Source: Blastocatellia bacterium | GTDB taxonomy: Bacteria > Acidobacteriota > Blastocatellia > Pyrinomonadales > Pyrinomonadaceae | Reading direction: 5' to 3' | Assembly (NCBI GenBank): GCA_963765045.1 | Contig: CAVXVF010000003.1 | Span: 171,488-235,487, forward strand | DNA: 64,000 nucleotides | Part shown: piece by piece, positions 21,767 through 49,848 of the stretch | Position numbering within the stretch: the first letter of the stretch is position 1 | Layout: every line of letters starts with the position of its first letter | Program-made: the position numbers and the translations under genes | The notes under the pieces: generated by a model | Seen by the model: the letters and a program-made list of their open reading frames with translations, nothing else | Told to the model about the DNA's origin: nothing | The model's database searches: none

Positions 21767-21772
21767 AAATTT

Positions 21773-21849: not shown

Positions 21850-21852
21850 CAT

Positions 21853-21889
21853 AAAAAAGGGCGTCGATCATCTCGACACCCTTTTTTTC
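21853..21889. terminator. Bidirectional terminator between tRNA-Arg and the convergent C25 peptidase gene
   Basis: agggcgtcga (21858-67) pairs with tcgacaccct (21873-82), with one mismatch. Flanked by an A-run and a T-run. Confidence 0.7.
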
Positions 21890-21907
21890 CTGCAATTAGC
21901 GACCCGT

Positions 21908-30199: not shown

Positions 30200-30748
30200 A
30201 TGCATTGCCCTCGCTGCGGCCAACAACAGGTTTCGGGCGAAACAAAATTCTGTTCTCGCTGCGGCTTTCAATTGGTGATCGTAACCGAACTGCTCGCGAA
30301 CGGCGGTGTTTTGCCGCAATTAGCTGCCCTTCAAAAAAACAAGACTTTTTTCAATAAGAAGAACGGCGTGATGTTCGGCGTCGCATGGTTCATATTCTTC
30401 ACAATGTTTATGACGTCGGTCTGGGGCATTCTTGATGTCGATAAACTGGCGGGATTATTTGCCGTAACCGGTGTGTTCGGAGCACTTTTGATAATCATCG
30501 GATCGCTCGTTTTTCTGCCGTCTTCCAGGCAAACACTACAGATACCTATGCAGGAGATTCCGCTTCCGCAACCGGCTGCTCTCTACGGCAATACCGGATC
30601 GGCGGCCGGATTACCATCGCAACGGCAGCAGCCGGCGAACGAATACACCGCTCCGACAGGTGCATGGAAGGCCCCGGACACAGGCGATCTTGTCGGCCCC
30701 GGCAGCGTTATCGAAAGCACAACGAAATTATTAAAACGCGACGAATAG
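30200..30748 (+). CDS. Zinc-ribbon membrane protein (paralog 1)
   Basis: MHCPRCGQQQVSGETKFCSRCGFQL, then 2-3 TM segments and a Pro/Gly-rich tail ending SVIESTTKLLKRDE. Confidence 0.7.
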   Translation: MHCPRCGQQQVSGETKFCSRCGFQLVIVTELLANGGVLPQLAALQKNKTFFNKKNGVMFGVAWFIFFTMFMTSVWGILDVDKLAGLFAVTGVFGALLIIIGSLVFLPSSRQTLQIPMQEIPLPQPAALYGNTGSAAGLPSQRQQPANEYTAPTGAWKAPDTGDLVGPGSVIESTTKLLKRDE

Positions 30749-30757: not shown

Positions 30758-31315
30758 ATGCATTGCCCAAAGTGTGGACAACAACAGGTATCAGACGAAA
30801 TTCGCTATTGTTCAAGGTGCGGATTTCTACTTTTAGGAATCGCAGAAGTTGTCGAGAATAACGGATTTCTTCCAGGTAGTACAAGTTCCGTTTCGACGGC
30901 AATATCGCCCCGAAAAAGAGGAGTGCGGCAGGGCGTTTTCATCTTCCTGCTGTCGTTTTTAATTGTCCCAGTTTTAGCTTTGTTGTCCGCGGTACTAAGC
31001 ACGGAGCCGGTTCTCGCAGTATTGGCGACTATCTTATTGGTTGCAGGCGGGTTCCTTCGAGCAGTTTATGCTTTGATGTTCGAATCCAAAGGTCCCGGCG
31101 GATCAACAACGGAAGAAAATTTGCTGGCCGCTACTCAAAACTTTCTCAAAACGAAGTCAAGGCCTGCTGAACTTCCCGCTGAAACTTCTATTCCCGCGGC
31201 AACATATGTCGCACCGGGCACTGGAAATTGGCGCGATTCCAACGATCTTGCACCTTCGGCAAGCGTCACTGACAGCACAACAAAACTTTTACAAAAAGAG
31301 CGTGAAAATCAATAA
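30758..31315 (+). CDS. Zinc-ribbon membrane protein (paralog 2)
   Basis: MHCPKCGQQQVSDEIRYCSRCGFLL with the same architecture. The tail ends SVTDSTTKLLQKEREN. Confidence 0.7.
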   Translation: MHCPKCGQQQVSDEIRYCSRCGFLLLGIAEVVENNGFLPGSTSSVSTAISPRKRGVRQGVFIFLLSFLIVPVLALLSAVLSTEPVLAVLATILLVAGGFLRAVYALMFESKGPGGSTTEENLLAATQNFLKTKSRPAELPAETSIPAATYVAPGTGNWRDSNDLAPSASVTDSTTKLLQKERENQ

Positions 31316-36029: not shown

Positions 36030-36105
36030 TCAAAACCGCGAGCGGTAGCGACCGGCCTCCTAATTCTTTGCTCCTCCTTTTCTTTCTTCTTCCTCCTCCC
36101 CTTAC

Positions 36106-36131
36106 GTGGTTAAGATTTATTGTCGGATCAC
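36106..36131 (+). repeat. Degenerate copy of the 'gtggttaaga..ccgaccac' hairpin element
   Basis: gtggttaagatttattgtcggatcac. The first ~12 nt match the copies at 37491 and 49670; the rest has diverged. Confidence 0.4.
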
Positions 36132-36347
36132 AAAAATAAACCTGCAAACGATTTGACTTTTAAAAAATTGAGATTACTGTCTCACCAACTTCTGTAAAAC
36201 TAGAAAAGAATTTGTTTGTTTTCAGTCACGATTATGACTGTTGTTTCCCGCAACGAATCATTTTTTGAGTTCAGAAACGCTGGACGATTTGGCCTGTAAA
36301 GGCTCTAATCGTCGGCGTTTTTTATTTTTTGATACCAAAGGAACATT

Positions 36348-37448
36348 ATGTCCAAAAAGAAAAGAAATGAGCAGAGTCTGAACCCGGCCAACAAAAAGCT
36401 TTCGGCGACAAAAGCGAATAAAGCCCTAATCAAGATCGGGCTGATTGTCGGAATATTGTTGTTCGTATTGGTCGGATTTGGAGCGTTCGTGAGCCGGCAA
36501 AACTCGACTGAAAACATTGCGTCGAGTTCCGCCAATCCACCCGCGCCATTGCCGACTCCGCAATACGCGGCAAACGCTCCAGCCAAGGAATTTTTGTACG
36601 CAGGCAGCAAATTACTGGCCGTATCTGAACCAGTTCAGCCCGCTCCGAATGACCTTGCCGTATGGCGGCTTTCGACCGGAGAGTGGTTCGTAATGGGAGA
36701 ATCCGGAGGCATCACTCAGCAAGTCTGGGGGGTGTCTACTGACAAACCTGCACCCGGCGATTTCGACGGCGACGGCAAGACCGATTTCTGCGTATTCCGG
36801 CCAAGCGAAGGCAAATGGTACATCGTACAATCGGGTACGAATACCTCTAATACACTCACTTTCGGCGTAAACGGAGACATCCCTGTTCCTGCGGATTTCG
36901 ATGGCGACAGCCGTACCGATTTGGCACTGTACCGGCCGAGCAATCAGACCTGGTACATCAAGCACATGGCCTCCGGCAATATCGTGACTCGCCAATATGG
37001 GAATAGCACCGACAAACCGCTGCCGAGCGATTTTGACGGCGACGGCAAAGCCGATATCGCCCTTTGGCGAAACAGCAACGCAACCTGGTATGTCTGGAAG
37101 AGCAGCACCAACTCGGGATCGAGCCTTGTGTGGGGCGCGAGCGGCGATAAACCGGTGCCCGGAGATTTCGACGGTGACGGCAAGACCGATCATGCCGTTT
37201 GGAAAAGCACTAACCTTTGGAGCATCCGCCGCAGTTCGAACGGCACGACAATGACCGCTACATGGGGCTTCCAGGCAAGCGATATTTCCGTTCAGGGCGA
37301 TTATGACCGGGACGGCAAATCCGACGTCGCCGTCTGGCGTCCGTCAAACGGCACCTGGTACATCGTTAAATCGAGCAACGGAACTATTCGCACCCAGGTC
37401 TGGGGCCAAAACGGAGACATCCCCGTCCCGACGCCGTACCGAAGATAG
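36348..37448 (+). CDS. Membrane-anchored FG-GAP/VCBS-repeat (beta-propeller-like) protein
   Basis: N-terminal TM (IKIGLIVGILLFVLVGFGAFV), then about six or seven ~44-aa repeats of D-K-P-x-P-G-D-F-D-G-D-G-K-T-D-x-x-x-[WFY]-R-P-S-x-x-x-W-Y-[IV]. Confidence 0.8.
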   Translation: MSKKKRNEQSLNPANKKLSATKANKALIKIGLIVGILLFVLVGFGAFVSRQNSTENIASSSANPPAPLPTPQYAANAPAKEFLYAGSKLLAVSEPVQPAPNDLAVWRLSTGEWFVMGESGGITQQVWGVSTDKPAPGDFDGDGKTDFCVFRPSEGKWYIVQSGTNTSNTLTFGVNGDIPVPADFDGDSRTDLALYRPSNQTWYIKHMASGNIVTRQYGNSTDKPLPSDFDGDGKADIALWRNSNATWYVWKSSTNSGSSLVWGASGDKPVPGDFDGDGKTDHAVWKSTNLWSIRRSSNGTTMTATWGFQASDISVQGDYDRDGKSDVAVWRPSNGTWYIVKSSNGTIRTQVWGQNGDIPVPTPYRR

Positions 37449-37459: not shown

Positions 37460-37536
37460 TTCCTCTTGTTCGTTCTTGTTCTTCTTCATAAGTGGTTAAG
37501 ACTTAAATCCGACCACGGAACAAGATGAACAAGACC
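37460..37536 (+). repeat. Long imperfect hairpin element with conserved core agtggttaagacttaaatccgaccacgga (37491-37519)
   Basis: Core stem gtggt/accac. The flanks (cttgttc-rich on the left, gaacaag-rich on the right) are mutually complementary. The 29-nt core matches 49670-49698 at 27/29 positions in the same orientation. Confidence 0.7.
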
Positions 37537-37606: not shown

Positions 37607-40600
37607 ATGATCCCGGAGAAAACGACCATGACCCGATTCAATAAAGCCGCTGACCAAATCCTGAAAGTAAGAAGCATTCAAGTACCTTCCCGACAATTTT
37701 CAGCAATTTTGCTGTTATTTGCTGTGTTGATGCCGATCACCGCGCCGATACCCGCTTGGGCATACAACCTGAACTTGCCGCCGGCGGCTGTCGATGACGG
37801 ATTGCGGTTAACCGCTTCTGGAGAGCATTTTAAAAACTCAATCAGCGATTTTCTGTCGAAGCTGACGAGCGACCCTGCTGCGTTGGTTACGACATCCGCC
37901 GGTGAAAATATAGACAAGGAATCTACATATTCATCGACAGCGTTGGAAAAGCGAGTTGCGGACATAAAGACGGAATTACATGACGGAGAAGTGATAGAGG
38001 TTGGACAGAAGATTTCATTGGCCGCTCGACCGATAGACAAAAAAGGCCTAATTATAAATGGTATCGCCGCTGAGTGGAGCTGTACCAATTCAAAAGTGCT
38101 CCGCATTTTGAACGATTCGGAAGCCGTAGCTATCGCGGAAGGCGAAGCGAAGCTTGTCGTACGTTCGGGGAATGTCATCAGAGAAGTGAGATTTAAAGTC
38201 AACAAGAGAGCTAGAAACGGTGCGAGACCTGTATCGTCCATGCTTGAGCCGCCGGAAATGCCTGTCATTACCGAGCAGCAAGTCGAAAATCTCGTTACCC
38301 CGGAAAATAATCTTGGCAATCCAATTGGACAAACAGAAATGGGTTCGCGGTCCGCGTCAGCGGCACTAAGAACGCGGGAGCGGTTCGGAAGCTCGAATTT
38401 CAGTTTTGATATTCCGGCGGCATCGCTGCCAGGTCGGGGAATCGATGCCTCAGTCGGAATCACATACAACAGCCGCATATGGAATAAGGCGTCATTTGGC
38501 GGAACGGATGTCTATACTTTTAACACGGATGGGAGTTGGCTGGCTCCGGGCTTTGAGATGGGATTTGGCGAGTTGACTCCATACGGATCGGGTACCGTAA
38601 GTGGCTACATGCTTACAAGTCCTGACGGCTCGAGACATCAACTGATTTACAAACAGGCGTCGGGTCAATGTTCGATTTTTGAATCGGCTGATGGGACGTT
38701 TATCGAAACCACGATCTGTGGTATTTATACGACCTCAACCTTGAACGTTGTTTTTCCGGACGGGACACAGGTGATGTATGGTGCGTCTACCGCTTCCGGA
38801 AAACGTTTTCCAATCCGAATTACCGACCGCAACGGCAACATGCTTACCATTGCGTATGTGCAAAACGACACTCAAGGCAAGATTTCGTACATCCGCGATA
38901 CTTTGAACCGGTATATCAATTTCTACTACGACACGCCTGATAATAAGCTGGTGGCGATCACCGTTCCGGGTTTTGACGGCGGTGCCGAACGGCAAACGAT
39001 CAGGTTTTATTACGCTGACATGACTTTCAACTGGATCGGGCGATTTGACGGCACGGTAAATGCCCCGACCACCGTTAAGGTCCTGAAGTATGTATATTTC
39101 CCAGGCACGCAAACAGGTTTTAAATACGATTATTCGCCGTATTTCGGAATGATTCACAAAATCTGGCAAATGCGCGGAATGCTGGTGAGCAGCAACAGCA
39201 CAACCGATACCGGTACTGTTACAAGCGAAGGAACATGGGCCGCATGGACAAGTTACAATTACCCGACAACTCCAGTCCCGACTCTGACTGACGTTCCAAA
39301 ATACACTCAGCGGACCGATGATTGGCTGGGCCGAACGAGCGCCGTTCCACAGACAAATTTCTCAATCAGCGAAGACGTGACACCGGCGGGTTGCGATATA
39401 AGCACCGGAGCCTGCACTGGCACGCGAAACGTCACGGTTACGGCGCCGGACGGCACAAGAAGTATTTCGGTTTCGAAGATAAGACCTTCAATCGATTGGG
39501 AAAACGGTCTGTTGCAGGAAACCAGAATCGAGACCGGCGCGGTCGGGTCGGAAGTAGTTTGGTCTAAGACAAAGCTCTTTTGGGAACAAGGAGCGGGCAG
39601 CACATTGCCCGGTCGAGATAATCCTCGTCTGGACAAAATCGAGGTTACGAACGACGCCAACCAGACAAGAGCAACAACCTTCGATTACGACAATTACAAT
39701 AATCAAACCGTTGTACGGGAACATGATTTTGCCGCGCCAAATAGTGAAGGAACCGAACTAAGAAGAACCGAGACGACGTATGAGACAGGGCTAGGGTGGA
39801 CAAACAATCGGCTTCTTCGCCTGCCCAAAGAGATAAAGACGATCGTCGGCACGGCGACCGTTTCTAAGACCGCTTACGAATATGACAAGAACGGCGAAGC
39901 AGCGGAGACCGCACTCACTCCGAGGCTAGATATTTCCGCTAGCGTGCATGATATAAGATACGACCCCTCGGCGCCGTCGGGACAGCAGTGCGCTCCGCAA
40001 TGCGAGGAGCCGCATCGTTGTTGTTGGACGGTTCACGTTTATCAGGCTTATACGCGGTTTCGCGGAAACGTAACAAAGATCACGGCGTTTTCGGATGCGA
40101 CGCTGGCAAGTGACCCGAACGCTTCGGTTTCGACGGTGAAATATGACATCGCCGGAAACGTAACGGAATCATCGTCAAGCTGCTGCGAACTGAAAACAAC
40201 GCAGTATTCGAACACGAATCACTATGCCTATCCGATGTCCGAAACACGCAACGGGCAGGGATTATCGTTAACCACGAGCGCGACTTACGATGTGCCGACC
40301 GGTTTTGTAAAAACCGCGACGGATGAGAACAATCAGACATCCATGCTGACCTACGACCCTAACAATTTGCGAGTCATCAGAAGCGACGGTCCGGTTGGAA
40401 CGGGCATCTGGTCAACGACGGAGTATAATGATTCGGTGTTTCCTTATCATGTAAAAACGACAAGCAGTCTGGACGCGACGCGGAGTGTATCGGCGTGGAG
40501 TTTTTCAAACGGGCGCGGACAAGGGTTTAGAAGCCGGAGCCAGACAACGGGAGGATATCTTTCGAGCGAGGTCGAATTTGACGTAATGGGTCGTGCCGAG

Positions 40601-43105
40601 AAGAGTTACAATCCGCACACGGTTACCAGTCTGACGGCCGCCCTTCCGACCGGAATAAAATTCTCGCGTATTACATCGCTTGACGGTTTGGGGCGGACGC
40701 TATCGACGACGCTGCCGGATAACACAATTGTCACGGCTACTTACAGCGGTCTTGTGGCGACCGCAACCGATCAGGCTGGAAAACAAAGAAGGCAAATAGC
40801 CGATGCTCTCGGCAGAACTGCGCGTGTCGACGAACCTGATGCGACGGGAAATCTCGGCTTGGTAACTTCGCCGGTTCAACCGACATTTTACGAATACGAC
40901 GGGAACGATAATCTGACAAAAGTTACGCAGTCGATACCGGGCGTGGTGACGCAGGAAAGATTGTTCAAGTACGACAGCCTTTCGCGATTGACACACGAAA
41001 AGCAGGTCGAGGCGAATGCGACGCTCGACAACAACGGCGTCAAGGTCGGGGCGGGCGGCCAGTGGACGGGCGTTTATAAGTACGACTTGGACAGCCTGCT
41101 GGTTGAAGGTTTCGATGCCCGCGGCGTGAAAACGGCGTTTACTTATGACGGTTTGAACCGTGTCAAAACGATTGCATACACCGGCGAGACGGGCTATCAG
41201 ACGCCGACGGCGACTTATACTTACGACGAGACGGAAACCAATTTCTTCAACAACGGGCGGCTGACGAAAGTTCAAACGGCGGCGAATGCCACATACGGAA
41301 TACCGGAGACAATCCAGAATTATCGGTATGACAAAATCGGGCAGGTGACAAAGCACGTCCAAAACATCGGTAATCAGAGTTATCAGCTTGAGTATGGATA
41401 CAATCTGGCCGGACAGTTAATTTCAGAGAAATATCCGTCAGGAAAGATCGTCAATATGACGGTCGATAATTTCGGACGGCTTTCGACGGTTGCGGACGCA
41501 CAGAGGACTTATCTGAGCAGTGTTGGTTTCAACAATCAGGGTCTGCTGTCGCAGATGAATCTGGGTAATGGAACTTCTGAAACGTTTTCTTACAATGACC
41601 GTTTTCAGATGACTTCGCAGAGTTTAAATAAGGGCGCTGAGGTTTTGCAGAAGTATGATTATTCTTACGGCACGGTCGATCTGGCAACAGGAACGGTTAA
41701 TACGCAAACCAATAATGGTCAGCTTTCCAAAATAGAAGGCTGGATAGGTGCCAACAAGCAGTGGAGCCAGAGGTTTGGTTATGACGAGCTTGGCCGATTA
41801 AAAGAAGCCCGCGAGTACAAGCAGGGGGTGAATACTCAGCTTACATACAAACAGGTGTTCGATTTCGACCGTTTCGGGAATCTCTATCGTAAAGCGGCGA
41901 GCAACCCAACGGCGGGTCAGCAGAATCCGCTTACATACACGCCTATCGAAGATGCCCACATTGACAGGGCCAAAAACCGTCTGACAACCGGAACGACCTA
42001 TGACGACGCCGGACAGGTTGTGAATGATACGAAGTTTCGTTCGATGTCGTTCGCCTATGACGCGAACGGCCATCAGGTGAAAGCTATGAGAGCCAGCGTC
42101 CCCGACGCGTGGACGGTTTATGACGCACTCGGAAACAGGGTTGCCACGAAGATCAACGACATCTGGCAATACATGGTTTATGATGCGTTTGGCAAATTAG
42201 TTGCTGAATACGGCGTCGCTTCCGAAACTCTCGGCGGCGTTAAATATCTACAACAAGATTGGCAGGGTTCAGTTCGCACTACGACCAATTCAAACGGTTT
42301 CGTGGTTGCGAGGACAGATCATCAAGCCTTTGGTGACGATGTCGGTTACGGAGTCGGGTTGCGTTCAATCGAGCAGGGATATTCGGTAGGAAAGGTTGCA
42401 AAACAAGGTTACGGTTTAACCGAGAATGATCAAGGTTCTGGACAGCAGCATACTTGGTTTAGGAAACTCGAAACCTCCGCCGGAAGATGGACGGGGCCTG
42501 ATCCGTATAAAGGGTCGATGTCGCTCGGCAATCCGCAATCGTTTAACCGGTATTCTTATGTTGAGAATCAGCCGACAAACTTTGTCGATCCGAGTGGGCT
42601 TTTCATAGTAGCGATTTGTTCTTTTGTTGGCACCTTCATTATCAATTTTGATACTCGTTGGCAGCAAACTGTGGATGTATATTTATGTACCATTATCGAC
42701 TTCGGTGGGGGCGGCCCAATCTTTCCCGTAGAACCTACATCTGGCGGTGGGGTGGGCGAACCTCAATTCGTCAATGCCAAGTTCGACGATGAGTACAAAA
42801 ATTACGATGCGTGCGTTAAAGCTGAAAATCAAAAATGTTTGAACAAAGGCCGTAAAAATTTCAATGAAAATGCTGTGTGGGATGCAGCTTCTTTACCGTT
42901 TACTGGAGGTGCGGGTATTATTTACGCGATGATCAAAAGCGCCGCTCTATGGAGCGCCCGCCTCGCTTTTGGTGCGATTGGAATAGGCGGAGGAATTGCT
43001 CTCGGTCTTTACAGGGCAGCACAGAGAGCGCAAGGGGTTGAGAATGATTGCAAGGAAGAAGTTCCAGCCAAATGTAAAGAATATAAGAGGAGTAACGTGG
43101 CATGA
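37607..43105 (+). CDS. RHS/YD-repeat polymorphic toxin, full length (1832 aa)
   Basis: N-terminal hydrophobic segment FSAILLLFAVLMPITAPIPAWA and a Big_2-like Ig domain (~aa 125-200). Many YD repeats (YDIAGNVTES, YEYDGNDNLTKV, YDSLSRLTHE, YDGLNRVKT, YDELGRLKEA, YDDAGQVVND, YDALGNRVAT, YDAFGKLVAE). The core ends with NQPTNFVDPSGL (Asp codon at 42587), followed by a 167-aa unique tip. Confidence 0.93.
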   Translation: MIPEKTTMTRFNKAADQILKVRSIQVPSRQFSAILLLFAVLMPITAPIPAWAYNLNLPPAAVDDGLRLTASGEHFKNSISDFLSKLTSDPAALVTTSAGENIDKESTYSSTALEKRVADIKTELHDGEVIEVGQKISLAARPIDKKGLIINGIAAEWSCTNSKVLRILNDSEAVAIAEGEAKLVVRSGNVIREVRFKVNKRARNGARPVSSMLEPPEMPVITEQQVENLVTPENNLGNPIGQTEMGSRSASAALRTRERFGSSNFSFDIPAASLPGRGIDASVGITYNSRIWNKASFGGTDVYTFNTDGSWLAPGFEMGFGELTPYGSGTVSGYMLTSPDGSRHQLIYKQASGQCSIFESADGTFIETTICGIYTTSTLNVVFPDGTQVMYGASTASGKRFPIRITDRNGNMLTIAYVQNDTQGKISYIRDTLNRYINFYYDTPDNKLVAITVPGFDGGAERQTIRFYYADMTFNWIGRFDGTVNAPTTVKVLKYVYFPGTQTGFKYDYSPYFGMIHKIWQMRGMLVSSNSTTDTGTVTSEGTWAAWTSYNYPTTPVPTLTDVPKYTQRTDDWLGRTSAVPQTNFSISEDVTPAGCDISTGACTGTRNVTVTAPDGTRSISVSKIRPSIDWENGLLQETRIETGAVGSEVVWSKTKLFWEQGAGSTLPGRDNPRLDKIEVTNDANQTRATTFDYDNYNNQTVVREHDFAAPNSEGTELRRTETTYETGLGWTNNRLLRLPKEIKTIVGTATVSKTAYEYDKNGEAAETALTPRLDISASVHDIRYDPSAPSGQQCAPQCEEPHRCCWTVHVYQAYTRFRGNVTKITAFSDATLASDPNASVSTVKYDIAGNVTESSSSCCELKTTQYSNTNHYAYPMSETRNGQGLSLTTSATYDVPTGFVKTATDENNQTSMLTYDPNNLRVIRSDGPVGTGIWSTTEYNDSVFPYHVKTTSSLDATRSVSAWSFSNGRGQGFRSRSQTTGGYLSSEVEFDVMGRAEKSYNPHTVTSLTAALPTGIKFSRITSLDGLGRTLSTTLPDNTIVTATYSGLVATATDQAGKQRRQIADALGRTARVDEPDATGNLGLVTSPVQPTFYEYDGNDNLTKVTQSIPGVVTQERLFKYDSLSRLTHEKQVEANATLDNNGVKVGAGGQWTGVYKYDLDSLLVEGFDARGVKTAFTYDGLNRVKTIAYTGETGYQTPTATYTYDETETNFFNNGRLTKVQTAANATYGIPETIQNYRYDKIGQVTKHVQNIGNQSYQLEYGYNLAGQLISEKYPSGKIVNMTVDNFGRLSTVADAQRTYLSSVGFNNQGLLSQMNLGNGTSETFSYNDRFQMTSQSLNKGAEVLQKYDYSYGTVDLATGTVNTQTNNGQLSKIEGWIGANKQWSQRFGYDELGRLKEAREYKQGVNTQLTYKQVFDFDRFGNLYRKAASNPTAGQQNPLTYTPIEDAHIDRAKNRLTTGTTYDDAGQVVNDTKFRSMSFAYDANGHQVKAMRASVPDAWTVYDALGNRVATKINDIWQYMVYDAFGKLVAEYGVASETLGGVKYLQQDWQGSVRTTTNSNGFVVARTDHQAFGDDVGYGVGLRSIEQGYSVGKVAKQGYGLTENDQGSGQQHTWFRKLETSAGRWTGPDPYKGSMSLGNPQSFNRYSYVENQPTNFVDPSGLFIVAICSFVGTFIINFDTRWQQTVDVYLCTIIDFGGGGPIFPVEPTSGGGVGEPQFVNAKFDDEYKNYDACVKAENQKCLNKGRKNFNENAVWDAASLPFTGGAGIIYAMIKSAALWSARLAFGAIGIGGGIALGLYRAAQRAQGVENDCKEEVPAKCKEYKRSNVA
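41225..42601 (+). repeat. rhs core segment duplicated in the two downstream orphan cassettes
   Basis: Colinear with 43681-45060 (with a one-codon length difference) and, from ~41390 onward, with 46378-47620. Includes an 80-nt perfect match, 42413-42492 = 44872-44951. Confidence 0.9.
42602..43102 (+). other. RHS C-terminal toxin domain 1 (unassigned; glycine-zipper-like hydrophobic segment)
   Basis: Sequence after DPSGL: FIVAICSF..VYLCTIIDFGGGGP..GGGVGEP..YDACVKAENQKC..GGAGIIYAMIKSAALWSARLAFGAIGIGGGIALGLYRAA. I recognise no catalytic motif. Confidence 0.7.
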
Positions 43106-43539
43106 TTTCTAAGTCTAAATACTCGTCAAAAGATTTTATCCAAGATGTCGCCGTTGCAGCTTTGATTACGACGATGTGTATGCTGGCATTTTTGCGGCGG
43201 GATTATTTGTATGGATCCCAAGATTACGATGGTATCGTATCTGTGTTTTTTTATGTGGGAATTGGGCTAAAAATCATTTTTGTAATAGGCTCCCTTTATT
43301 TACTATTGAGGTTGCAATACCCACAGAGTTTAGTTGCCGGAATAGTTTTGGTCGGTTGCTGGCTGCTTGCTGAATGTTTCCCGAATTCCGTATCAGTTTT
43401 ATTCTTAAAAGAACTGAATGACGTTTTCGGGTATTTTGGGGGCGTATTTATTTACCCGATTTGGCGGTGGCAGAGGCTAACGAACACCAATGCGGAGGTC
43501 TTGGACGACAAACCCACTACTTTGAATTTGAATAACTAG
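43102..43539 (+). CDS. Putative immunity protein 1 (4-TM membrane protein)
   Basis: The ATG overlaps the rhs stop (ATGA). 145 aa with about 4 hydrophobic helices, AT-richer than the flanking sequence. Confidence 0.65.
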   Translation: MISKSKYSSKDFIQDVAVAALITTMCMLAFLRRDYLYGSQDYDGIVSVFFYVGIGLKIIFVIGSLYLLLRLQYPQSLVAGIVLVGCWLLAECFPNSVSVLFLKELNDVFGYFGGVFIYPIWRWQRLTNTNAEVLDDKPTTLNLNN

Positions 43540-43568
43540 AGTGCAGGGGATATGTGAAGGAGCGTTTG

Positions 43569-43680
43569 TATCCTCATTCGTTCAATCTCATCTAGGCTGA
43601 TGGCGTCGCTCGTGCGGTCGTAAAGCTTTGTTGTTCGGGACTAGCATGGGCGGCTATTTCCTGCTCGTAACTGTAAAAAC
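43569..43680 (-). pseudogene. 3' remnant of a tyrosine recombinase/integrase gene (frameshifted and 5'-truncated at the orphan rhs junction)
   Basis: The minus strand reads ..EQEIAAHASP (frame a), then, one missing base later, RTTKLYDRTSDAISLDEIERMRI (frame b). From memory, this matches the conserved C-terminus (..AAHESPRTTKLYDRT.D.I.LDE.ERI.I) of a family of site-specific integrases. Confidence 0.5.
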
Positions 43681-45060
43681 GACGAGACCGAGAGCGGTTT
43701 CCACAACAACGGGCAGTTGACAAAAGTTCAAACGGCGGCGAATGCCACATACGGAATACCGGAGACAATACAGAATTATCGTTACGACAAAATCGGACAG
43801 GTTACAAAGCATGTTCAGACCATCGGCAATCAGAGTTATCAGCTTGAGTATGGATACAACCTCGCCGGACAGTTGGTGAGCGAGAAGTATCCGAGCGGCA
43901 AGATCGTCAACATGACGGTCGATAATTTCGGAAGATTGCAAACTGTCGCCGACGCACAGCGGACTTATCTGAGCAGTGTCGGTTTCAACAATCAGGGTCT
44001 GCTGTCGCAGGTGAATCTCGGCAACGCAACGAGCGAAACTTTTTCGTACAATGACCGTTTTCAGATGACTTCCCAGAGCCTGAATCGCGGTTCGGAAGTT
44101 TTGCAAAAATATGATTATTCTTACGGCACGGTCGATCTGGCAACAGGAACGGTTAATACACAAACCAATAATGGTCAGCTTTCCAAAATAGAAGGTTTTA
44201 TCGGAGCAAACAAGCAGTGGTCGCAGCGGTTCGGTTACGACGAGCTTGGGCGCTTGAAGGAAGCGAGAGAGTACAAGCAGGGCACGAATACTCAACTAAC
44301 TTACAAACAGGTGTTCGACTTCGACCGCTTTGGGAATCTCTATCGAAAGAACGCAAGCAACCCAACCGCAGGGCAGCAGAACCCGCTTATATACACGCCG
44401 ATTGAGAATGCGGACATAGATAAAACTAAAAATCGTCTCACAACCGGAACAACTTACGACGATGCCGGACAGGTTGTGAATGATACGAAGTTTCGTTCGA
44501 TGAGTTTTGCCTACGACGCAAATGGCCGTCAGGTCAACTCTACGAACTCTATAAACTCTACGAACGCTCAAACAGTCTATGACGCACTTGGAAACAGAGT
44601 CGCCACGAAGATCAACGACATTTGGCAGTACATGGTCTATGACGCTTTCGGGAAATTGGTTGCTGAATACGGCACGGCGAGCGAAGGTCTCGGCGGTGTG
44701 AAGTACGTTCAGCAGGACTGGCAAGGCAGTGTCAGAACCGTGACAAATAACAACGGCTTCGTGGTCGCCCGAACGGATCACCAGGCATTCGGCGGCGAAG
44801 TCGGTTACGGAACCGGGCAACGCTCCGTCGAACAAGGCTACAACGTCGGTAAGGTTACAAAACAAGGCTACGGTTTAACCGAGAATGATCAAGGTTCTGG
44901 ACAGCAGCATACTTGGTTTAGGAAACTCGAAACCTCCGCCGGAAGATGGACAGGTCCCGATCCGTACAAGGGTTCAATGTCGCTTGGCAATCCACAGTCG
45001 TTTAATCGATATTCTTACGTTGAAAACCAGCCGACGAATTTTGTTGATCCAAGTGGATTA
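43681..45060 (+). repeat. rhs core copy within orphan cassette 1
   Basis: DETESGFHNNGQLTKVQTAANATYGIPETIQNYRYDKIGQVTKHVQ... parallels main-gene aa ~1207-1665. Confidence 0.9.
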
Positions 45061-45714
45061 CTCTACATCTTATATTGCACATATATTGGATACATGGCCG
45101 ATATGCCCGGTTTTCCAAGTGTGTATTCTTGCCATTTGGTGGAAATTGGCGGCGGCGGCATCGGTGGTCCTAGGGAGCCGCCTGTTCACGGCGGCGGTGT
45201 TGGCAGCGGCGGCAGAGAGACACCACCAGTCGATAGCGATTGTGAAAAATTTGCCAAGTTAGTTGGTGAAATCGCCAAGAGTGCTAAAAATGCCAAAGAT
45301 TTTGCGGATCAGATGGCTAAAAGATTTCTTGGCGTTAACGGAGCCTCATTGAGTGAATTACGCAGGGCGAATGAGGTTGGCGGTGGTGAATCGTTTGGTA
45401 GCTCGGGATTCAAAGAGCAATTTCAGGGGCCTGGCAATCAGGTGCGACACTTTACAGGAGGCCTGATCGGTGGTTACTTGTTTGGAGCAACGGGCGGCGA
45501 TTGGGGAATGTGGTTTGGGGAGGACGACCCAGAGGATATTGCGCTTAATGCGGTTAGCAGTGCTTTAGGAGCCAGAATAGTGGACCCTACGCCTGCGACG
45601 ACAAAGGAGGTTTCCGGTGGGTACAGAAGCGAAATGAGACGTATCGTAAATGTCCCTGCCAATCCTGGATATACTGATTTGGCGGATCGTATTAGGAAAC
45701 AAGTCTGTGAATAA
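43717..45714 (+). CDS. Orphan RHS C-terminal cassette 1 (core fragment plus 217-aa toxin tip 2); no canonical start
   Basis: The in-frame homology begins at 43681, just after a TAG at 43642. Only a TTG (43717) is available as a start. The core ends NQPTNFVDPSGL (Asp at 45046), then a unique tip contains ..GFKEQFQGPGNQVRHFTGGLIGGYLFGATGGDWGMWFGEDDPEDIALN... Confidence 0.8.
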   Translation: MTKVQTAANATYGIPETIQNYRYDKIGQVTKHVQTIGNQSYQLEYGYNLAGQLVSEKYPSGKIVNMTVDNFGRLQTVADAQRTYLSSVGFNNQGLLSQVNLGNATSETFSYNDRFQMTSQSLNRGSEVLQKYDYSYGTVDLATGTVNTQTNNGQLSKIEGFIGANKQWSQRFGYDELGRLKEAREYKQGTNTQLTYKQVFDFDRFGNLYRKNASNPTAGQQNPLIYTPIENADIDKTKNRLTTGTTYDDAGQVVNDTKFRSMSFAYDANGRQVNSTNSINSTNAQTVYDALGNRVATKINDIWQYMVYDAFGKLVAEYGTASEGLGGVKYVQQDWQGSVRTVTNNNGFVVARTDHQAFGGEVGYGTGQRSVEQGYNVGKVTKQGYGLTENDQGSGQQHTWFRKLETSAGRWTGPDPYKGSMSLGNPQSFNRYSYVENQPTNFVDPSGLLYILYCTYIGYMADMPGFPSVYSCHLVEIGGGGIGGPREPPVHGGGVGSGGRETPPVDSDCEKFAKLVGEIAKSAKNAKDFADQMAKRFLGVNGASLSELRRANEVGGGESFGSSGFKEQFQGPGNQVRHFTGGLIGGYLFGATGGDWGMWFGEDDPEDIALNAVSSALGARIVDPTPATTKEVSGGYRSEMRRIVNVPANPGYTDLADRIRKQVCE

Positions 45715-45786
45715 TCAAGGGCGAATTTTGCTTCGTTCCCGGTGTTGATATGCCAAATTTAGTGCAGTAATTCGTTCGAGGTGTTT

Positions 45787-46341
45787 ATGTTCGGGAAAAA
45801 ACTTTCAATCGTATTGTTCGGATGCTTGGTTTTTAGTTCTTGCGGCAAAGGCTACGACACTAAAAAGGTTGTTGAGTCTTGGGAGACAGGAAATCAACAG
45901 TTAAAAATCCGTGTTGCATCATATCCAGAAAATATCCATCTTCTTTATGGGGGAGCATATTATGTTTTTGAGTCATCTAGAAATGGCGAATGGGTAGAGA
46001 TTATGACTGTTAGGCATGATGATCTGACTCCTATTGACAAAAATGGCGTGAAATTCGTTAACGAAAATATTTGCTATGTTTATTCGGGTTCGGGGTTTGC
46101 TGTTACTACGGATGTTGGGAATACGTGGACTCTATGGGATGGTCGGGAACATAATTACTTGGATAAAGAGGTTGAATATGGCGTGATAACAAAGATAGAA
46201 ATCCGAAGCGATGGTCAGGGTGAAATGATCGTATGGGTATTTGCACCCAACAAGAATGATTGTCAAACGGTATTGACAAGCGACTACGGACAAACTTGGG
46301 TGAACGGTAATTTACTTGACAAAGGTAAATGTTCTCTCTAG
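45787..46341 (+). CDS. Putative immunity protein 2: lipoprotein with BNR/Asp-box motifs
   Basis: Lipobox VFSSCGKG and two Asp-box-like S/T-x-D-x-G-x-T-W motifs (TTDVGNTW, TSDYGQTW). Located directly after toxin tip 2. Confidence 0.6.
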   Translation: MFGKKLSIVLFGCLVFSSCGKGYDTKKVVESWETGNQQLKIRVASYPENIHLLYGGAYYVFESSRNGEWVEIMTVRHDDLTPIDKNGVKFVNENICYVYSGSGFAVTTDVGNTWTLWDGREHNYLDKEVEYGVITKIEIRSDGQGEMIVWVFAPNKNDCQTVLTSDYGQTWVNGNLLDKGKCSL

Positions 46342-48214
46342 TTTTGCGCGAAAAAAAACGCCTTGGATAGATGCACAGCAATACAATCTTGAGTACGGCT
46401 ACAATCTGGCCGGGCAATTGATTACGGAGAAATATCCTTCTGGAAAGATCGTCACAACGAGCTATGATGCGAACGGCAGATTGTCGGGCGTCGCCGATCC
46501 TTCTCGGACTTATCTGAGCGGTATGCAGTATTTGGGCAAGGGCAATTCGGTCAGCCAGATGACGCTTGGCAACGGAACGGTTGAGAACTATACGCTTAAC
46601 GACCGTTTTCAAATGACCGGACAGGAGTTGAAACGCGGCACCGAGGTTCTGCAAAAGTACAATTACGGTTATGGCGAGATCGACGGTTCGGGGAATCTTG
46701 TTACGACAAAAAATAACGGTCAGCTTGGAAGAATAGAAAGCTACATCGGCACGGCAAAGCAATCGACGCAGAAGTTTCTTTACGATCACATTGGCCGTTT
46801 GAAAGAATCGGCCGAATATCGCGGTGATAACAATAGTCTGACTTACAAGCAGAAGTTCGATTTTGACAGGTTTGGGAATCTTTATCGGAAAGCCGCGAGC
46901 AACCCAACGGCGGGACAGGCGAATCCATTGGCTTACACTCCGATTGAAGAGACGACGACACCGGGAACGGGCGATATCGAAAAGTCGACGAATCGATTCC
47001 GCACCGGCACGACGTATGACGATGCTGGGCAAGTTGTCGCGGATAATAAATTCCGTTCGATGAACTTTGCCTACGACGCGAATGGCCGTCAGGTCAACTC
47101 TACGAACTCTACAAACTCTACGAACGCTCAAACCGTCTATGATGCGAGCGGAAACAGAGTTGCGACAAAGATCAATAACATCTGGCAGTATATGATCTAC
47201 GACGCCTTCGGAAAACTTGTGGCCGAATACGGCGTAGCGTCAGAAGGCGTGGGCGGAGTAAAATATCTCCAGCAGGATTGGCAAGGCAGCGTGAGAACCG
47301 TAACAAACAATAATGGATTTGTCGTCGGAAGAACGGATCACCAAGCTTTTGGTAATGACGTGGGATACGGAGTCGGGCAACGCTCGGTCGAGCAGGGCTA
47401 TTCGGGTGGTAAAGCTACTCGACAGGGCTATGGATTGACCGAACGCGACGACGCGACGGGACAAGATCACACGTGGTTCAGAAAGAACGAAAACCTCGCC
47501 GGACGCTGGACAAGTCCCGATCCTTATAATGGCTCGATGTCCCTCGGCGACCCGCAGAGTTTCAACCGGTACAGTTATGTCCAAAGTGATCCAACGAATT
47601 TCGTTGATCCGAGTGGGTTGCAAATGGCAATTTGTTATATCGACGGATTCCAGGCAAACTGCAGCACGGCGTTTCACTTGGTGCAATCGGGTGGCGGCTA
47701 CGTCAGTTGGCACAGCGTCGATTGGTTGACGGTTGTCAACGAATACACCCTGATTGATGACCGCTGGACGCGTACTGGTCAATATCTTCATTTTAATCCT
47801 TTATACAATTTTAACCCAGAGGGCAATCTTGGTCCTCGTGGTGGTGGCGGCGGTAACAAAAATAATTCTGAAGATGATTTCTCGGATTGTCGAGATGAAG
47901 TCAGGGCGGAATTTATGTCGGATATATTTGCCGCAAGTGATAAATTTAATAAAGCTAATTCTGACCACATTCTGGATCCGGCATCTCTGAAAACTGCGGC
48001 CCTCGGAATCGTTGGTCTGGCGGGAGGTATTCTTTTCAGGTCTCCGTCGTCACTGTTGAGTGGCTTGGCTGCTTTGTCTTGGGTTCAGGGTGCTTCTTAC
48101 GTCAATTTATATACTCTAGCAAAAGATGTTTGGAAAGCGTATAGGAAAGAAAGAAAGCAGATGGCTAGATGCACACCGATTTTGATCAATAAAAGTAGAA
48201 GTGTTTCGGTATGA
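46316..48214 (+). CDS. Orphan RHS C-terminal cassette 2 (core fragment plus 197-aa toxin tip 3); no canonical start
   Basis: Homology to the main core starts ~46378 (YNLEYGYNLAGQLITEKYPSGKIV). The track ORF begins at a TTG that overlaps the preceding gene. The core ends SDPTNFVDPSGL (Asp at 47606), followed by a unique tip. Confidence 0.8.
   Translation: MTKVNVLSSFARKKTPWIDAQQYNLEYGYNLAGQLITEKYPSGKIVTTSYDANGRLSGVADPSRTYLSGMQYLGKGNSVSQMTLGNGTVENYTLNDRFQMTGQELKRGTEVLQKYNYGYGEIDGSGNLVTTKNNGQLGRIESYIGTAKQSTQKFLYDHIGRLKESAEYRGDNNSLTYKQKFDFDRFGNLYRKAASNPTAGQANPLAYTPIEETTTPGTGDIEKSTNRFRTGTTYDDAGQVVADNKFRSMNFAYDANGRQVNSTNSTNSTNAQTVYDASGNRVATKINNIWQYMIYDAFGKLVAEYGVASEGVGGVKYLQQDWQGSVRTVTNNNGFVVGRTDHQAFGNDVGYGVGQRSVEQGYSGGKATRQGYGLTERDDATGQDHTWFRKNENLAGRWTSPDPYNGSMSLGDPQSFNRYSYVQSDPTNFVDPSGLQMAICYIDGFQANCSTAFHLVQSGGGYVSWHSVDWLTVVNEYTLIDDRWTRTGQYLHFNPLYNFNPEGNLGPRGGGGGNKNNSEDDFSDCRDEVRAEFMSDIFAASDKFNKANSDHILDPASLKTAALGIVGLAGGILFRSPSSLLSGLAALSWVQGASYVNLYTLAKDVWKAYRKERKQMARCTPILINKSRSVSV
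46378..47620 (+). repeat. rhs core copy within orphan cassette 2
   Basis: More diverged than copy 1, but colinear through to DPSGL. Confidence 0.85.
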
Positions 48215-48353
48215 CTCTGAAATCCAGGATTAACTTGGGTTATCCATTTTAGCGTGGCACTTTATTAAATAGTTGAACCAGAACCTATCGCTGGTCAGTT
48301 TTTGAACCGAATATGGAGTAATTTTGTACAAATCCCTGAAAAAGGTCACCATC

Positions 48354-48641
48354 ATGTACGGCCTGAAAAATGATATGCGAATAATAAAGCAGATTAATAG
48401 GATTCAAGAGTTATTGTTTACATCTCCGTCTAAGATTCCCCAAATCTTTCACATGTATCCATCTCTATTATTGTTGATCGGTATAAGTATTTTAGGGACG
48501 TCGGCCCTTGGATTCTTTTGGGCAATAGGCCATGAAAAAAATATCATTCTCTTCGCTTTGTCTATTGTCTTATTCTTGTTAAGCATTTCAATTCTGATTT
48601 CGTATTGGCGAATTTACCATTGTAAGCATCCAGTAAAATAG
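48354..48641 (+). CDS. Putative immunity protein 3 (2-TM membrane protein)
   Basis: MYGLKNDMRIIKQ... with helices YPSLLLLIGISILGTSALGFFWAI and IILFALSIVLFLLSISILISYW. AT-rich, and lies downstream of toxin tip 3. Confidence 0.55.
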   Translation: MYGLKNDMRIIKQINRIQELLFTSPSKIPQIFHMYPSLLLLIGISILGTSALGFFWAIGHEKNIILFALSIVLFLLSISILISYWRIYHCKHPVK

Positions 48642-48721: not shown

Positions 48722-49657
48722 TCATTGGACATTCTTGTCGTAGATGTCGTGAAGAACTTCGGTGATGGGCTTGCGGTCGGCGAACGGGTCTTTCTTTAGT
48801 TTTTTCGAATTGTTCTTTTCTTCGTGTCGATGGGAAGCCCCGGAAGTTCTCGCTGTAGCTTTGTCGAAGGCTTCGAACGTAGTGTCGGTCACGCTTCGCC
48901 GTGGCTGGACTTGCGAGTGTTCGGGAAGAACCTGAACGTCGTTGAGATCAGTGTTTTGAGAGCCATTAGTGTGCGTGTTCTTCGCGTAAATAGTGCGGCT
49001 TTCTTCGAGAAGAGCTTTGCCGCGAAGCTTACGGGCACGTTCCAAAGCGCGGATAGATGCAGATGTCAGCGGAGCATCGGCCGGATCGCGTTCGATCTTC
49101 CGTAGCACCTTTACATAATTTCTCAGCTCCGGCGATGGATAAACGTAGGAGGTCTCGTTGGCAGTATCATTTTCGATGACGTGCGAAAGGCAGTTGATGG
49201 CGGACTGATGATCGCCGGCTTTGTGGTAAAGAGCTCCGAGCGCGAAATAGACTAGCGGCGGAGCACCGCTCATCCTGTTCAATATCGCCTCACCACGGGC
49301 GATCGAATCCTTTATTTCAAAACCGAACCAGTTGCGGCCGTCATCACGGAGCATTTCGTTGGCGGACAGATAAAATTCGAAGATGTCGCGGGTCTCGTTC
49401 CTCGTGCCCGATGCGAACATCTTGAATAGGAAATAAGCGAAAACTCCGAAAAAGAAGATAACAAACACCGGAAAGCCCGCCACCAAAAGCATCGACGCGA
49501 CAACGCCAAAGGCAATGAAATATTGACCTTTTTCCTTTATCGAACCAGGTGCTTTTTTTTGTATCTTGTTCTCGTTCACAGATAATAAGTGCAGTCCAAA
49601 AAATTGAGTCAAGCGAATCTGACGGAAATATTCTTTCGTCTTGTTCATCTGTTCCAT
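48722..49657 (-). CDS. Hypothetical membrane protein with TPR-like helical domain
   Basis: 311 aa. TM pair (YFIAFGVVASMLLVAGFPVFVIFFFGVFAYFLF) and a helical C-terminal part. Its first codons lie inside the left arm of the 49640-49716 hairpin element. Confidence 0.55.
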   Translation of the reverse strand: MEQMNKTKEYFRQIRLTQFFGLHLLSVNENKIQKKAPGSIKEKGQYFIAFGVVASMLLVAGFPVFVIFFFGVFAYFLFKMFASGTRNETRDIFEFYLSANEMLRDDGRNWFGFEIKDSIARGEAILNRMSGAPPLVYFALGALYHKAGDHQSAINCLSHVIENDTANETSYVYPSPELRNYVKVLRKIERDPADAPLTSASIRALERARKLRGKALLEESRTIYAKNTHTNGSQNTDLNDVQVLPEHSQVQPRRSVTDTTFEAFDKATARTSGASHRHEEKNNSKKLKKDPFADRKPITEVLHDIYDKNVQ

Positions 49658-49716
49658 TTCATCTTGATCAGTGGTTATGATTTAAATCCGACCACGGATC
49701 AAGAGGAACGGAACGA
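49640..49716 (+). repeat. Long imperfect hairpin element with core agtggttatgatttaaatccgaccacgga (49670-49698)
   Basis: tcttgatc(a)gtggt...accac(g)gatcaaga forms an extended stem. The core matches 37491-37519 at 27/29 positions. Confidence 0.7.
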
Positions 49717-49848
49717 AAAAGAGGGTTTGAACGGCTTTGGCTTAAATTCTTTTTTGAATTTTCATAAGTACCCATGAGTAGATCCCCTTTCCAGACATTA
49801 CTCGCCAGCTCGCGGCTTTGATTCGCTCTTTAGTAATGTCCTATTGCC

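Follow-up and report, generated by a model that had tools for sequence, protein, structure and literature searches.

The stretch of DNA analysed here, 64,000 nucleotides of a Blastocatellia bacterium assembly (GenBank GCA_963765045.1, contig CAVXVF010000003.1, positions 171,488 to 235,487 of the forward strand; hereafter the window), carries a complete rhs gene that is followed by two start-less rhs fragments (orphan 1 and orphan 2). Each of these three copies ends in its own C-terminal tip (tip 1 to tip 3) and is followed by its own small open reading frame (ORF; imm1 to imm3), while a gene encoding an FG-GAP protein (the partner) lies directly upstream of the complete copy. The nearest relatives of the Rhs protein in a species-representative collection are all encoded by metagenome-assembled genomes of Acidobacteriota, mostly Pyrinomonadaceae/Blastocatellia (best match 68% identity), and the host itself is a Pyrinomonadaceae-like Acidobacterium. 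The features of the array are listed below in window positions.

36348-37448 (+): partner gene, 366 aa, on the same strand as rhs and separated from it by a 158-nt gap
37607-43105 (+): full-length rhs, 1832 aa, with predicted signal peptide, immunoglobulin-like (Ig-like) domain, YD shell, putative aspartyl-protease core and tip 1
42602-43102 (+): tip 1, 167 aa
43102-43539 (+): imm1, 145 aa, small ORF 3′ of the main rhs
43679-45060 (+): core fragment of orphan 1, start-less, 81.5% identity to main-gene positions 41223-42601
43717-45714 (+): stop-bounded ORF of orphan 1, 665 aa, running through core and tip 2
45061-45714 (+): tip 2, 217 aa, with its toxin domain at 45217-45711
45781-46341 (+): imm2, 186 aa, likely start at ATG 45787
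46316-48214 (+): ORF of orphan 2, 632 aa, the opening of its frame overlapping the 3′ end of imm2
46378-47620 (+): core fragment of orphan 2, start-less, with homology from about 46378-46388
47621-48214 (+): tip 3, 197 aa
48324-48641 (+): imm3, 105 aa, possible start at ATG 48354
42410-42492 (+): 83-nt identical stretch, main-gene copy
44869-44951 (+): 83-nt identical stretch, orphan 1 copy

All sequence hallmarks of Rhs polymorphic toxins were found in this array, i.e. YD/RHS repeats, a core with DPxGL, and a variable tip with a downstream ORF. The Pfam model RHS_repeat (PF05593) matched the main gene (1.2e-14), orphan 1 (8e-13) and orphan 2 (1.6e-9), the NCBIfam YD_repeat models (TIGR01643; YD_repeat_2x) matched all three copies, and Rhs_assc_core (TIGR03696) scored above its cutoff in each of them (1e-9 in the main gene). 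The presence of three core copies was confirmed by direct-repeat families, and the core of every copy ends in ...PTNFVDPSGL (NFVDPSGL occurring three times), with the DPSGL codons located at nt 42587-42601, 45046-45060 and 47606-47620. Beyond this motif the three tips cannot be aligned with one another, and the small ORFs follow at 0-110 nt 3′ of the tips. Upstream of the orphan 1 homology, in-frame stops and no ATG were found. ORFs, core models and three-copy repeats agree in this respect with a preliminary description of this DNA, which had proposed one full-length rhs and two start-less orphan tip/immunity cassettes; the start that it gave for the orphan 2 homology (~46378) was reproduced, while that for orphan 1 moved from 43681 to 43679. 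Multi-cassette orphan arrays are also present in three related loci (L002, L008 and L009; the prefix L denotes such loci throughout).

Core copies and cassette displacement

The cores of the main gene and orphan 1 are 81.5% identical over 1382 columns, and the core of orphan 2 is 67% identical to that of the main gene and 69% to that of orphan 1. At 81.5% identity, a perfect run of 83 nt between main gene and orphan 1 has a probability of about 1e-5 (under a simple independent-site model), so that this run is a sign of recent gene conversion or recombination, and not a product of chance. The run had already been noted in the preliminary description, albeit as 80 nt, and extends over 42410-42492 and 44869-44951. 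Identity is also patchy along the cores, with orphan 1 and orphan 2 reaching 86-87% at 44468-44620, where orphan 1 and the main gene share only about 70%, so that the three copies are mosaics of one another.

The single relative of tip 1 (P0088; see below) led to a 7.2-kb contig of a sister strain (L013; NCBI GCA_965193195.1). Positions 1361-4368 of this contig correspond to window positions 42049-45056 (96.3% identity over 3010 bp), with 2991-4368 covering the orphan 1 core (96% identical), to which a different tip is attached, and positions 5892-7017 correspond to the flanking TPR gene at 48722-49831 (95%). The contig successively presents (i) the 3′ end of an rhs gene whose tip has its pre-toxin part in common with tip 3 and diverges beyond it, (ii) about 540 nt of core with tip 1 and an identical copy of imm1, in orphan position, (iii) the orphan 1 core, which changes tip at the equivalent of window position 45056, inside the DPSGL codons, and is followed by a DUF4431 gene, and (iv) a 223-nt remnant of the orphan 2 core, followed by the TPR gene that flanks the array in the window. 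Because both the position and the content of cassettes differ between the two strains and breakpoints lie at DPSGL, the tips are exchanged or displaced by homologous recombination within the conserved core, in line with the tip exchange anticipated in the preliminary description. Start-less 3′ core fragments and cassette movement, which together characterise orphan cassettes, were both found.

These observations bear directly on a reading in which the orphan fragments, instead of constituting a recombining reservoir, would be remains of pseudogenes in decay or small toxins that are translated on their own. We regard this reading as unlikely, although several features would fit it: neither fragment has a canonical start codon, orphan 2 would be a poor substrate for recombination (its core has only 67% identity to that of the main gene and no exact match of at least 25 nt with it), the sister strain keeps the 223-nt remnant of orphan 2 only, and another related locus (L015) has short rhs-core remnants. 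However, long open frames (665 and 632 aa) run through core and tip in both fragments, the imm ORFs are intact, the 83-nt tract and the mosaic patches reveal ongoing exchange, and the same cassette occupies the main position in the window and an orphan position in the sister strain.

Two further observations concern cassettes outside the window. The alternative orphan 1 tip of the sister strain (L013 4373-5622) has a WRNNNPGNLR motif and no Pfam match, and the DUF4431 protein (4e-14) encoded after it makes the two a candidate further toxin/immunity pair. In L015 (GCA_026931425.1, JAIXLL010000002.1), positions 3100-12000 form an insertion of about 9 kb in an aconitase/C25-peptidase/cyclophilin backbone as seen in the window; the insertion contains the short rhs-core remnants together with a stand-alone tip 2-like gene and an imm2-like gene, while its equivalent in the window (21766-21908) holds only a tRNA-Arg(CCG) at 21773-21849. 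This suggests a second, tRNA-adjacent site that accumulates Rhs cassettes.

The Rhs precursor, its tips and their immunity candidates

Ahead of tip 1, the main Rhs protein can be divided into four regions.

37607-37762 (+): predicted Sec-type signal peptide, residues 1-52, based on hydropathy and conservation
37763-37816 (+): conserved mature N-terminal motif, residues 53-70, x-[DN]-L-N-L-P-P-x(2,3)-D-D-G-L-R-L-T
37958-38206 (+): Ig-like (Big_2-like) domain, residues about 118-200, based on a profile match
38306-42601 (+): conserved Rhs shell/core, residues 234-1665, ending in DPYKG-x(24)-DPSGL

As judged by hydropathy and alignment, the N-terminus has an n-h-c layout consisting of a basic n-region, a hydrophobic stretch (AILLLFAVLMPI) and the c-region TAPIPAWA, which contains a conserved P-x-P-x-W-A site. 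In alignment A3, five homologues all retain residues P43, P47, P49, W51 and A52, which corroborates the Sec-like hydrophobic N-terminus of the preliminary description, and cleavage is predicted after AWA. In the motif that would then open the mature protein, L55, N56, L57, P58, D63, G65, L68 and T69 are invariant (alignment A3), making it a candidate docking or sorting motif. A search with the N-terminal 240 aa returned one relative only, and homology to the related loci starts at about residues 206-234 in all of them.

Pfam detects no Big_2 domain (PF02368) in the main Rhs protein, nor in three homologues close to it, and the homologue in L016 yielded a sub-threshold Big_2 match (E=0.021; 15.2 bits versus a cutoff of 22.8) that spans nearly the whole model. 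A four-sequence profile of this region (A5) matched the Ig-like domains of the S-layer entries 4uid (8.8e-6) and 8opr (3e-4), with weaker matches to a LigB-like domain and to the teneurin-like protein 9ifo (0.22). We consequently regard this region as Ig-like, and treat the Big_2 label that it bears in the preliminary description as unproven. The domain is optional, being absent from the L002 homologue, and modelling of residues 1-300 with AF2 (from a two-sequence alignment) gave an unusable result (pLDDT 33).

A profile of the shell built from five homologues (A6) matched PDB entry 7q97 (‘Rhs family protein’, T6SS-type, i.e. of the type VI secretion system; 1.5e-10) and Tse5 (0.012), and missed the solved teneurin-like proteins 9ifo and 9pt5 at E<=1. 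D1632 (in DPYKG) and D1661 (in DPSGL) occupy invariant columns of this alignment and form a putative aspartyl autoprotease pair that would cleave after L1665; the shell cysteines C355, C805, C859 and C860 are invariant as well. An NHL domain was not matched by Pfam in the main Rhs protein, nor was an FN-plug detectable by sequence.

Following DPSGL, all three tips and the tips of related loci share one plan, in which a hydrophobic segment with 2-4 cysteines and a poly-Gly linker precede a domain of about 120-165 aa. The preliminary description, which had called the three C-terminal domains unrelated, is thus right in that they cannot be mutually aligned, but missed this common segment and linker, as well as the fact that tips 1 and 3 are of one kind. 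Tips and imm ORFs had no match above threshold in Pfam or NCBIfam, and the tips none among PDB sequences; this agrees with the earlier statement that they belong to no nameable family, yet tip 2 does have an unnamed family of at least 86 clusters (see below). Of ten tips from related loci, two are Peptidase_M23 domains (cell-wall endopeptidase) and eight have no Pfam family. A concatenated imm1+imm2+imm3 search came back empty, missing even the identical imm1 of the sister strain, and is therefore unreliable and no evidence of absence.

Tip 1 consists of a hydrophobic Cys segment (C1671...C1694), a GGGG linker and a Gly-zipper-like pair of hydrophobic helices (GGAGIIYAMIKSAALWSARLAFGAIGIGGGIALGLY), and its only relative among 5.8 billion clusters is the 99% identical P0088 of the sister strain. 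In tip 3, the Cys segment leads into a beta-rich pre-toxin part, which a GGGGG linker connects to hydrophobic Gly/Ala-rich helices (AALGIVGLAGGILF...LSGLAALSWVQGA); the same cluster search, made with tips 1 and 3 concatenated, yielded no relative of tip 3 beyond itself. Against PDB sequences, both tips gave chance-level matches only. The ORF after tip 1 encodes three predicted transmembrane (TM) helices; its ATG overlaps the rhs stop codon (ATGA) and is preceded by the Shine-Dalgarno-like AAGAGGAG, an arrangement that marks imm1 as translationally coupled to rhs. The imm3 product has two predicted TM helices, and its only match, to Tetraspanin and below threshold, reflects TM composition. Tips 1 and 3 are predicted to be membrane-active toxins. 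Pairwise similarity between tip 1 and tip 3, or between imm1 and imm3, is not significant; they are alike in type and not by homology.

Tip 2 is composed of a Cys hairpin, a Gly-rich linker and a 165-aa toxin domain of an unnamed family. An exhaustive HMMER search retrieved 86 clusters at E<=1e-3, 49 of them at <=1e-10, and the full-domain matches that were checked are C-terminal. Among the eight matches longer than 600 aa, five are RHS proteins; the other three (P0063, P0081 and P0086) are weak matches to PA14/GLEYA proteins, and were judged compositional and rejected as family members. Named members are few, being ‘hypothetical’ or ‘RHS repeat’ proteins of Acidobacteriota/Pyrinomonadaceae. 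In alignment A2, C9 and C164 are invariant and bracket the domain, and Q75, R77, H78, E102, D107, N111 and S114 are invariant within it. The domain was modelled with AF2 at a pLDDT of 91.5 and a pTM of 0.85. Foldseek, which the preliminary description had recommended for the tips, returned nothing for this model at E<=1e-3 in PDB or BFVD (best TM-score about 0.2), and its sequence gave chance-level matches only against the PDB; the fold is thus new with respect to solved (PDB) and viral (BFVD) structures. Tip 2 would be an enzyme acting in the periplasm, with Q-x-R-H, E, D and N as candidate catalytic residues.

The imm2 product has a lipoprotein-like signal (LVFSSC) and two Asp-box motifs (TDVGNTW and SDYGQTW), and is predicted to be a periplasmic immunity lipoprotein. 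Its homologues (36-38% identity, E 1e-29 to 1e-34; tblastn) are encoded directly 3′ of tip 2 homologues in three of three other loci examined (L014, L015 and L016), and give sub-threshold BNR matches. This co-occurrence supports tip 2 and imm2 as a cognate toxin/immunity pair, for which the genomic evidence is good. Every indicator, namely the membrane and lipoprotein immunity candidates, the terminal cysteines and the M23 relatives, suggests that the compartment targeted is the cell envelope.

The upstream partner gene and the genomic surroundings

The conserved FG-GAP gene directly upstream of rhs (36348-37448) was overlooked in the preliminary description. It encodes a protein with a basic N-tail, one TM helix (about residues 28-48), an RHS/YD-like hairpin (PAKEFLYAGSKLLAVSEP; residues 78-95) and about 6-7 FG-GAP/VCBS blades (Pfam FG-GAP_3, 2e-20; FG-GAP, 2e-19). 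In L001, L002, L003 and L006, homologues with 52-68% identity, which is about the level of Rhs conservation, are likewise located directly upstream of rhs; the L002 partner additionally has a weak, short match to TcdB_toxin_midN (5e-7) that is attributable to its FG-GAP repeats. When compared by eye and unscored, PAKEFLYAGSKLLAVSEP resembles a single RHS/YD repeat such as WQYMVYDAFGKLVAEYG in the Rhs core. In L004 and L007 there is no FG-GAP gene, and the N-terminus of Rhs itself consists of a TM helix and SKSYIYAGSKLVAVEE at equal spacing (pairwise E=9e-5), i.e. the TM + YxYAGSKLxAV module is fused to Rhs. In L016, a Big_7 protein begins with the TM-plus-hairpin module, and its gene lies upstream of one for a full-length Rhs with a tip of the tip 2 family. 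The constant element is accordingly a TM helix with one YD-like hairpin, the outer domain being variable. Because the module is fused to Rhs in L004 and L007, it can be proposed, on evidence of the Rosetta-stone type, to work together with Rhs.

In L004 (4368-6764) and L007 (3077-5467), the rhs gene with fused N-terminus follows a MobL/MobA-type relaxase gene at a distance of a few kb, and this fused variant may ride on a mobilisable element. The L004 rhs is split by a frameshift into ORFs of 371 aa and 1603 aa.

The flanks of the array in the window consist of housekeeping genes, encoding an aminotransferase, PheRS, aconitase, a C25 peptidase, gamma-glutamyltranspeptidase, Nramp, MscS-cNMP, Fur, RsmB and others. 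Beside the related loci L001-L012, none of the flanking MscS, TPR and Fur genes was found, so the module sits in different contexts. A Pfam scan of the main called ORFs (mostly of at least 120 aa) revealed no PAAR, VgrG, Hcp or Tss gene in the 64-kb window, which for PAAR, VgrG and Hcp had also been stated in the preliminary description; the contig from which the window was taken is at least 452,815 bp long. PAAR and prePAAR motifs are missing from the main Rhs protein, genes for VgrG, Eag or DUF1795 are absent from its vicinity (Pfam, NCBIfam), and no T6SS genes adjoin rhs in the related loci examined with 10-kb flanks. A scan for promoters and terminators gave counts at the level of shuffled sequence and is uninformative on operon structure.

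A palindromic intergenic element occurs at 36085-36135, 37464-37535 and 49640-49710 of the window, as well as at 6811-6906 of the sister-strain contig L013. Its core AGTGGTTAAGAyTTAAATCCGACCAC is flanked by the inverted sequences CTTGTTC/GAACAAG or, with compensatory changes, CTTGATC/GATCAAG. The three matches compare with 0.04 expected, and two copies fold strongly (z = -3.9 and -4.5). One copy lies upstream of the FG-GAP gene, one between the FG-GAP gene and rhs, and one past the far end of the array by the TPR gene. The element may be of the REP type, or may act as a terminator or in regulation, and would bracket the locus.

Some further ORFs of the window were recorded. A 1167-aa ORF at 52133-55636 (-), between the Fur/DUF2520 genes and an M48 peptidase gene, encodes a large uncharacterised protein that matches part of the DUF6079 model (3.9e-16; positions 31-427 of 1238 in the profile). 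Two paralogues in tandem, both of about 183 aa and with a zinc ribbon at the N-terminus, are encoded at 30200-30748 and 30758-31315 (+), and a third small zinc-ribbon/LITAF-like protein at 10019-10510 (-). Between pheS and pheT, a 147-aa ORF at 4524-4967 (+) has sub-threshold matches to retropepsin-like aspartyl proteases (about 2e-5).

Proposed mechanism and relation to known systems

The locus can be assigned by its sequence to the Rhs polymorphic-toxin family, and the T6SS-effector features that were tested fail. In our opinion it is probably a T6SS-independent Rhs (YD-shell) polymorphic toxin locus in which one toxin gene is expressed and two cassettes are kept silent as a reserve. According to this proposal, the Rhs precursor would be exported by Sec, its signal being cleaved after AWA, and the shell would fold outside the cytoplasm, where disulfides are suggested by the conserved Cys pairs in the shell, in the hairpin after DPSGL and at the ends of tip 2. 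The tip would be cleaved after DPSGL and stay encapsulated until delivery to the envelope of a neighbouring cell. Tips 1 and 3 would then insert into the cytoplasmic membrane from the periplasmic side and permeabilise or depolarise it, and would be neutralised by the small integral-membrane immunity proteins, while tip 2, as an enzyme with a new fold, would act in the periplasm and be neutralised there by the lipoprotein imm2. The partner would most likely bind the Rhs shell via its hairpin and serve as an anchor, gate, adaptor, or receptor- or target-binding subunit. The silent orphans would become expressed upon recombination into the main gene.

A number of points weigh against this proposal. 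Toxicity, immunity, secretion and cleavage are all inferred, and both the co-transcription of partner and rhs and the silence of the orphans are assumed. The membrane-toxin label of tips 1 and 3, which have no homologues, derives from their composition and from the nature of their immunity candidates, and the enzymatic nature of tip 2 from its invariant polar residues. The N-terminal segment of Rhs could be an uncleaved anchor instead of a signal peptide, and a T6SS or other exporter may be encoded elsewhere in the genome, as the window covers 64 kb of at least 452 kb. A difficulty, finally, is that the TM helix of the partner would hold it at the inner membrane, which is hard to square with contact-dependent delivery to another cell.

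A different function is conceivable for a protein of this build, namely that of a Tc-toxin-like or teneurin-like surface protein directed against eukaryotic grazers or involved in adhesion or kin recognition, in which the FG-GAP propeller would correspond to the propeller of TcB or the NHL domain of teneurins. Bacterial teneurin-like proteins, for which social roles have been proposed, do share a Sec signal, an Ig-like N-terminus, a YD shell and a small tip, and the TcdB_toxin_midN match of the L002 partner (5e-7), weak as it is, points in the same direction. We nevertheless give this function only a small chance, since the window contains no TcA-like translocator, SpvB or NHL domain, and since profile A6 reaches T6SS-type Rhs structures and not 9ifo or 9pt5 at E<=1. 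Moreover, a membrane or lipoprotein ORF beside each tip and the co-variation of imm2 with tip 2 form the self-protection signature of an antibacterial toxin, and relatives carry peptidoglycan hydrolase tips of the M23 type.

Somewhat less probable still is that the locus encodes an ordinary T6SS cargo Rhs whose secretion genes lie elsewhere, the N-terminal hydrophobic segment being a helix for insertion into the target membrane as in prePAAR effectors. Neither the PAAR or prePAAR motif nor a nearby VgrG, Eag or DUF1795 gene was found, and the related loci examined had no T6SS genes beside rhs within their 10-kb flanks. The N-terminus furthermore has the layout of a signal peptide, including a conserved site of the AXA type, and leads into an Ig-like domain of a kind typical for surface proteins; the Cys pairs and envelope-acting tips would fit extracytoplasmic folding. 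On the side of this explanation, rhs genes remote from T6SS clusters are common in proteobacteria, and the contig, of which 64 kb were inspected here, has a length of at least 452 kb. T6SS has also been listed for Acidobacteria (Zhang et al. 2012, PMC3482391). As for an assembly artefact, i.e. a collapsed or expanded repeat in what is probably a metagenome contig, where repeats of 1.2-1.4 kb are prone to mis-joins, this is extremely improbable because the copies are 67-82% identical and carry different tips, so that they cannot be one collapsed sequence, and because the independent assembly of the related strain reproduces the tip 1-imm1-orphan 1 core junction (3010 bp, 96.3%) as well as the TPR junction, against the duplication scenario raised in the preliminary description.

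The proposed T6SS-independent toxin locus has several known counterparts, and the earlier suggestion of an undescribed antagonism system is unsupported or overstated in this respect: RHS polymorphic toxins with signal peptides were catalogued in 2012 (PMC3482391), and Sec-dependent YD-shell toxins were characterised in 2026 (PMC13018210). The former, a Sec/T2SS class (T2SS, type II secretion system) with Acidobacteria among its carriers, was defined in silico by the signal peptide only (Zhang, de Souza, Anantharaman, Iyer & Aravind 2012, PMC3482391), and shares with the present locus a signal peptide (predicted here), RHS repeats, polymorphic toxin, adjacent immunity and stand-alone cassettes. 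Relative to this class, the mature N-terminal motif, the partner, the Cys-hairpin/poly-Gly segment and the tips without Pfam or NCBIfam match stand out, the families of that paper having been compared via Pfam only.

Teneurin-like proteins are Sec-dependent YD-shell proteins with Ig-like N-termini, membrane-active hydrophobic tips and downstream immunity, whose tip is toxic only when sent to the periplasm and whose delivery machinery is stated by the authors to be unknown (Raoelijaona et al. 2026, PMC13018210). Together with WapA of Bacillus and Streptococcus, they (PDB 9ifo, 9pt5) resemble the present locus, for which these features are predicted from sequence, in Sec export, Ig-like N-terminus and a YD shell enclosing a cleaved tip of roughly 15-20 kDa, as well as in DPxG aspartyl autoproteolysis, hydrophobic membrane-active tips and an immunity gene immediately 3′. 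In contrast to the teneurin-like proteins, no FN-plug or NHL domain is detectable here and the propeller is a separate FG-GAP protein, so that the locus falls outside their definition. WapA, in turn, relies on Gram-positive cell-wall-binding repeats, whereas the host here is diderm.

In its layout the locus corresponds to the rhs loci of enterobacteria (E. coli, Salmonella, Dickeya, Serratia), in which a full-length rhs is followed by 5′-truncated cores ending in PxxxxDPxGL, each fragment has its own tip and immunity, the shared core serves as recombination substrate, and strains differ by cassette displacement. Enterobacterial Rhs proteins, however, are T6SS cargo (PAAR/VgrG-linked) without signal peptide, and mostly act in the cytoplasm as nucleases or ADP-ribosyltransferases (ARTs), while the locus described here combines a predicted Sec-type signal and an Ig-like domain with tips that are predicted to be directed at the envelope, is preceded by the gene of a membrane-anchored FG-GAP partner, and is not accompanied by T6SS genes within the window. 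Tips 1 and 3 are reminiscent of Tse5, a pore-forming Rhs toxin of P. aeruginosa (PMC10684867), of Tse4 and of the BiTLP C-terminal domain, which are small, Gly-rich, hydrophobic helical tips that act on the cytoplasmic membrane, as is predicted here too, and are paired with membrane-protein immunity; Tse5 differs in being delivered by the T6SS, and tips 1 and 3 have no sequence similarity to solved proteins. The TcB-TcC cocoon of Tc (ABC) toxins is similar in combining an RHS shell with an FG-GAP-type beta-propeller in a shell of two polypeptides. Within the window, neither the SpvB/TcdB mid-N domains characteristic of Tc BC components nor TcA were found, there is no insecticidal context, and the propeller protein has a TM anchor and one YD-like hairpin; the Tc analogy is structural speculation.

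New in this locus are the motif at the mature N-terminus, the partner with its TM helix and YD-like hairpin, the pre-toxin design of Cys hairpin and poly-Gly, two singleton tips of putative membrane activity, and an unnamed family of predicted toxins and immunity proteins that matches no solved (PDB) or viral (BFVD) structure. As a tentative extension, more doubtful than not, these elements might constitute a two-component T6SS-independent Rhs delivery module of diderms, in which the YD hairpin of a membrane-anchored adaptor would complete or gate a Sec-exported cocoon (a split shell, TcB/TcC-like), and a variable outer domain (FG-GAP or Big_7) would select the target, so as to deliver envelope-acting toxins that include a new enzyme fold (tip 2) with an Asp-box lipoprotein as immunity. 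Were all inferred parts to fail, a routine Rhs array would remain.

Acidobacteriota are abundant in soil, and their interbacterial weaponry is largely unstudied. For the open question of how Sec-exported YD-shell toxins are delivered in diderms, the partner provides a concrete candidate accessory factor, and tip 2 with imm2 would be a tractable pair in which to look for a new activity directed at the envelope. The comparison of the two strains, moreover, carries the direct comparative evidence for tip swapping in Rhs systems beyond enterobacteria into Acidobacteriota.

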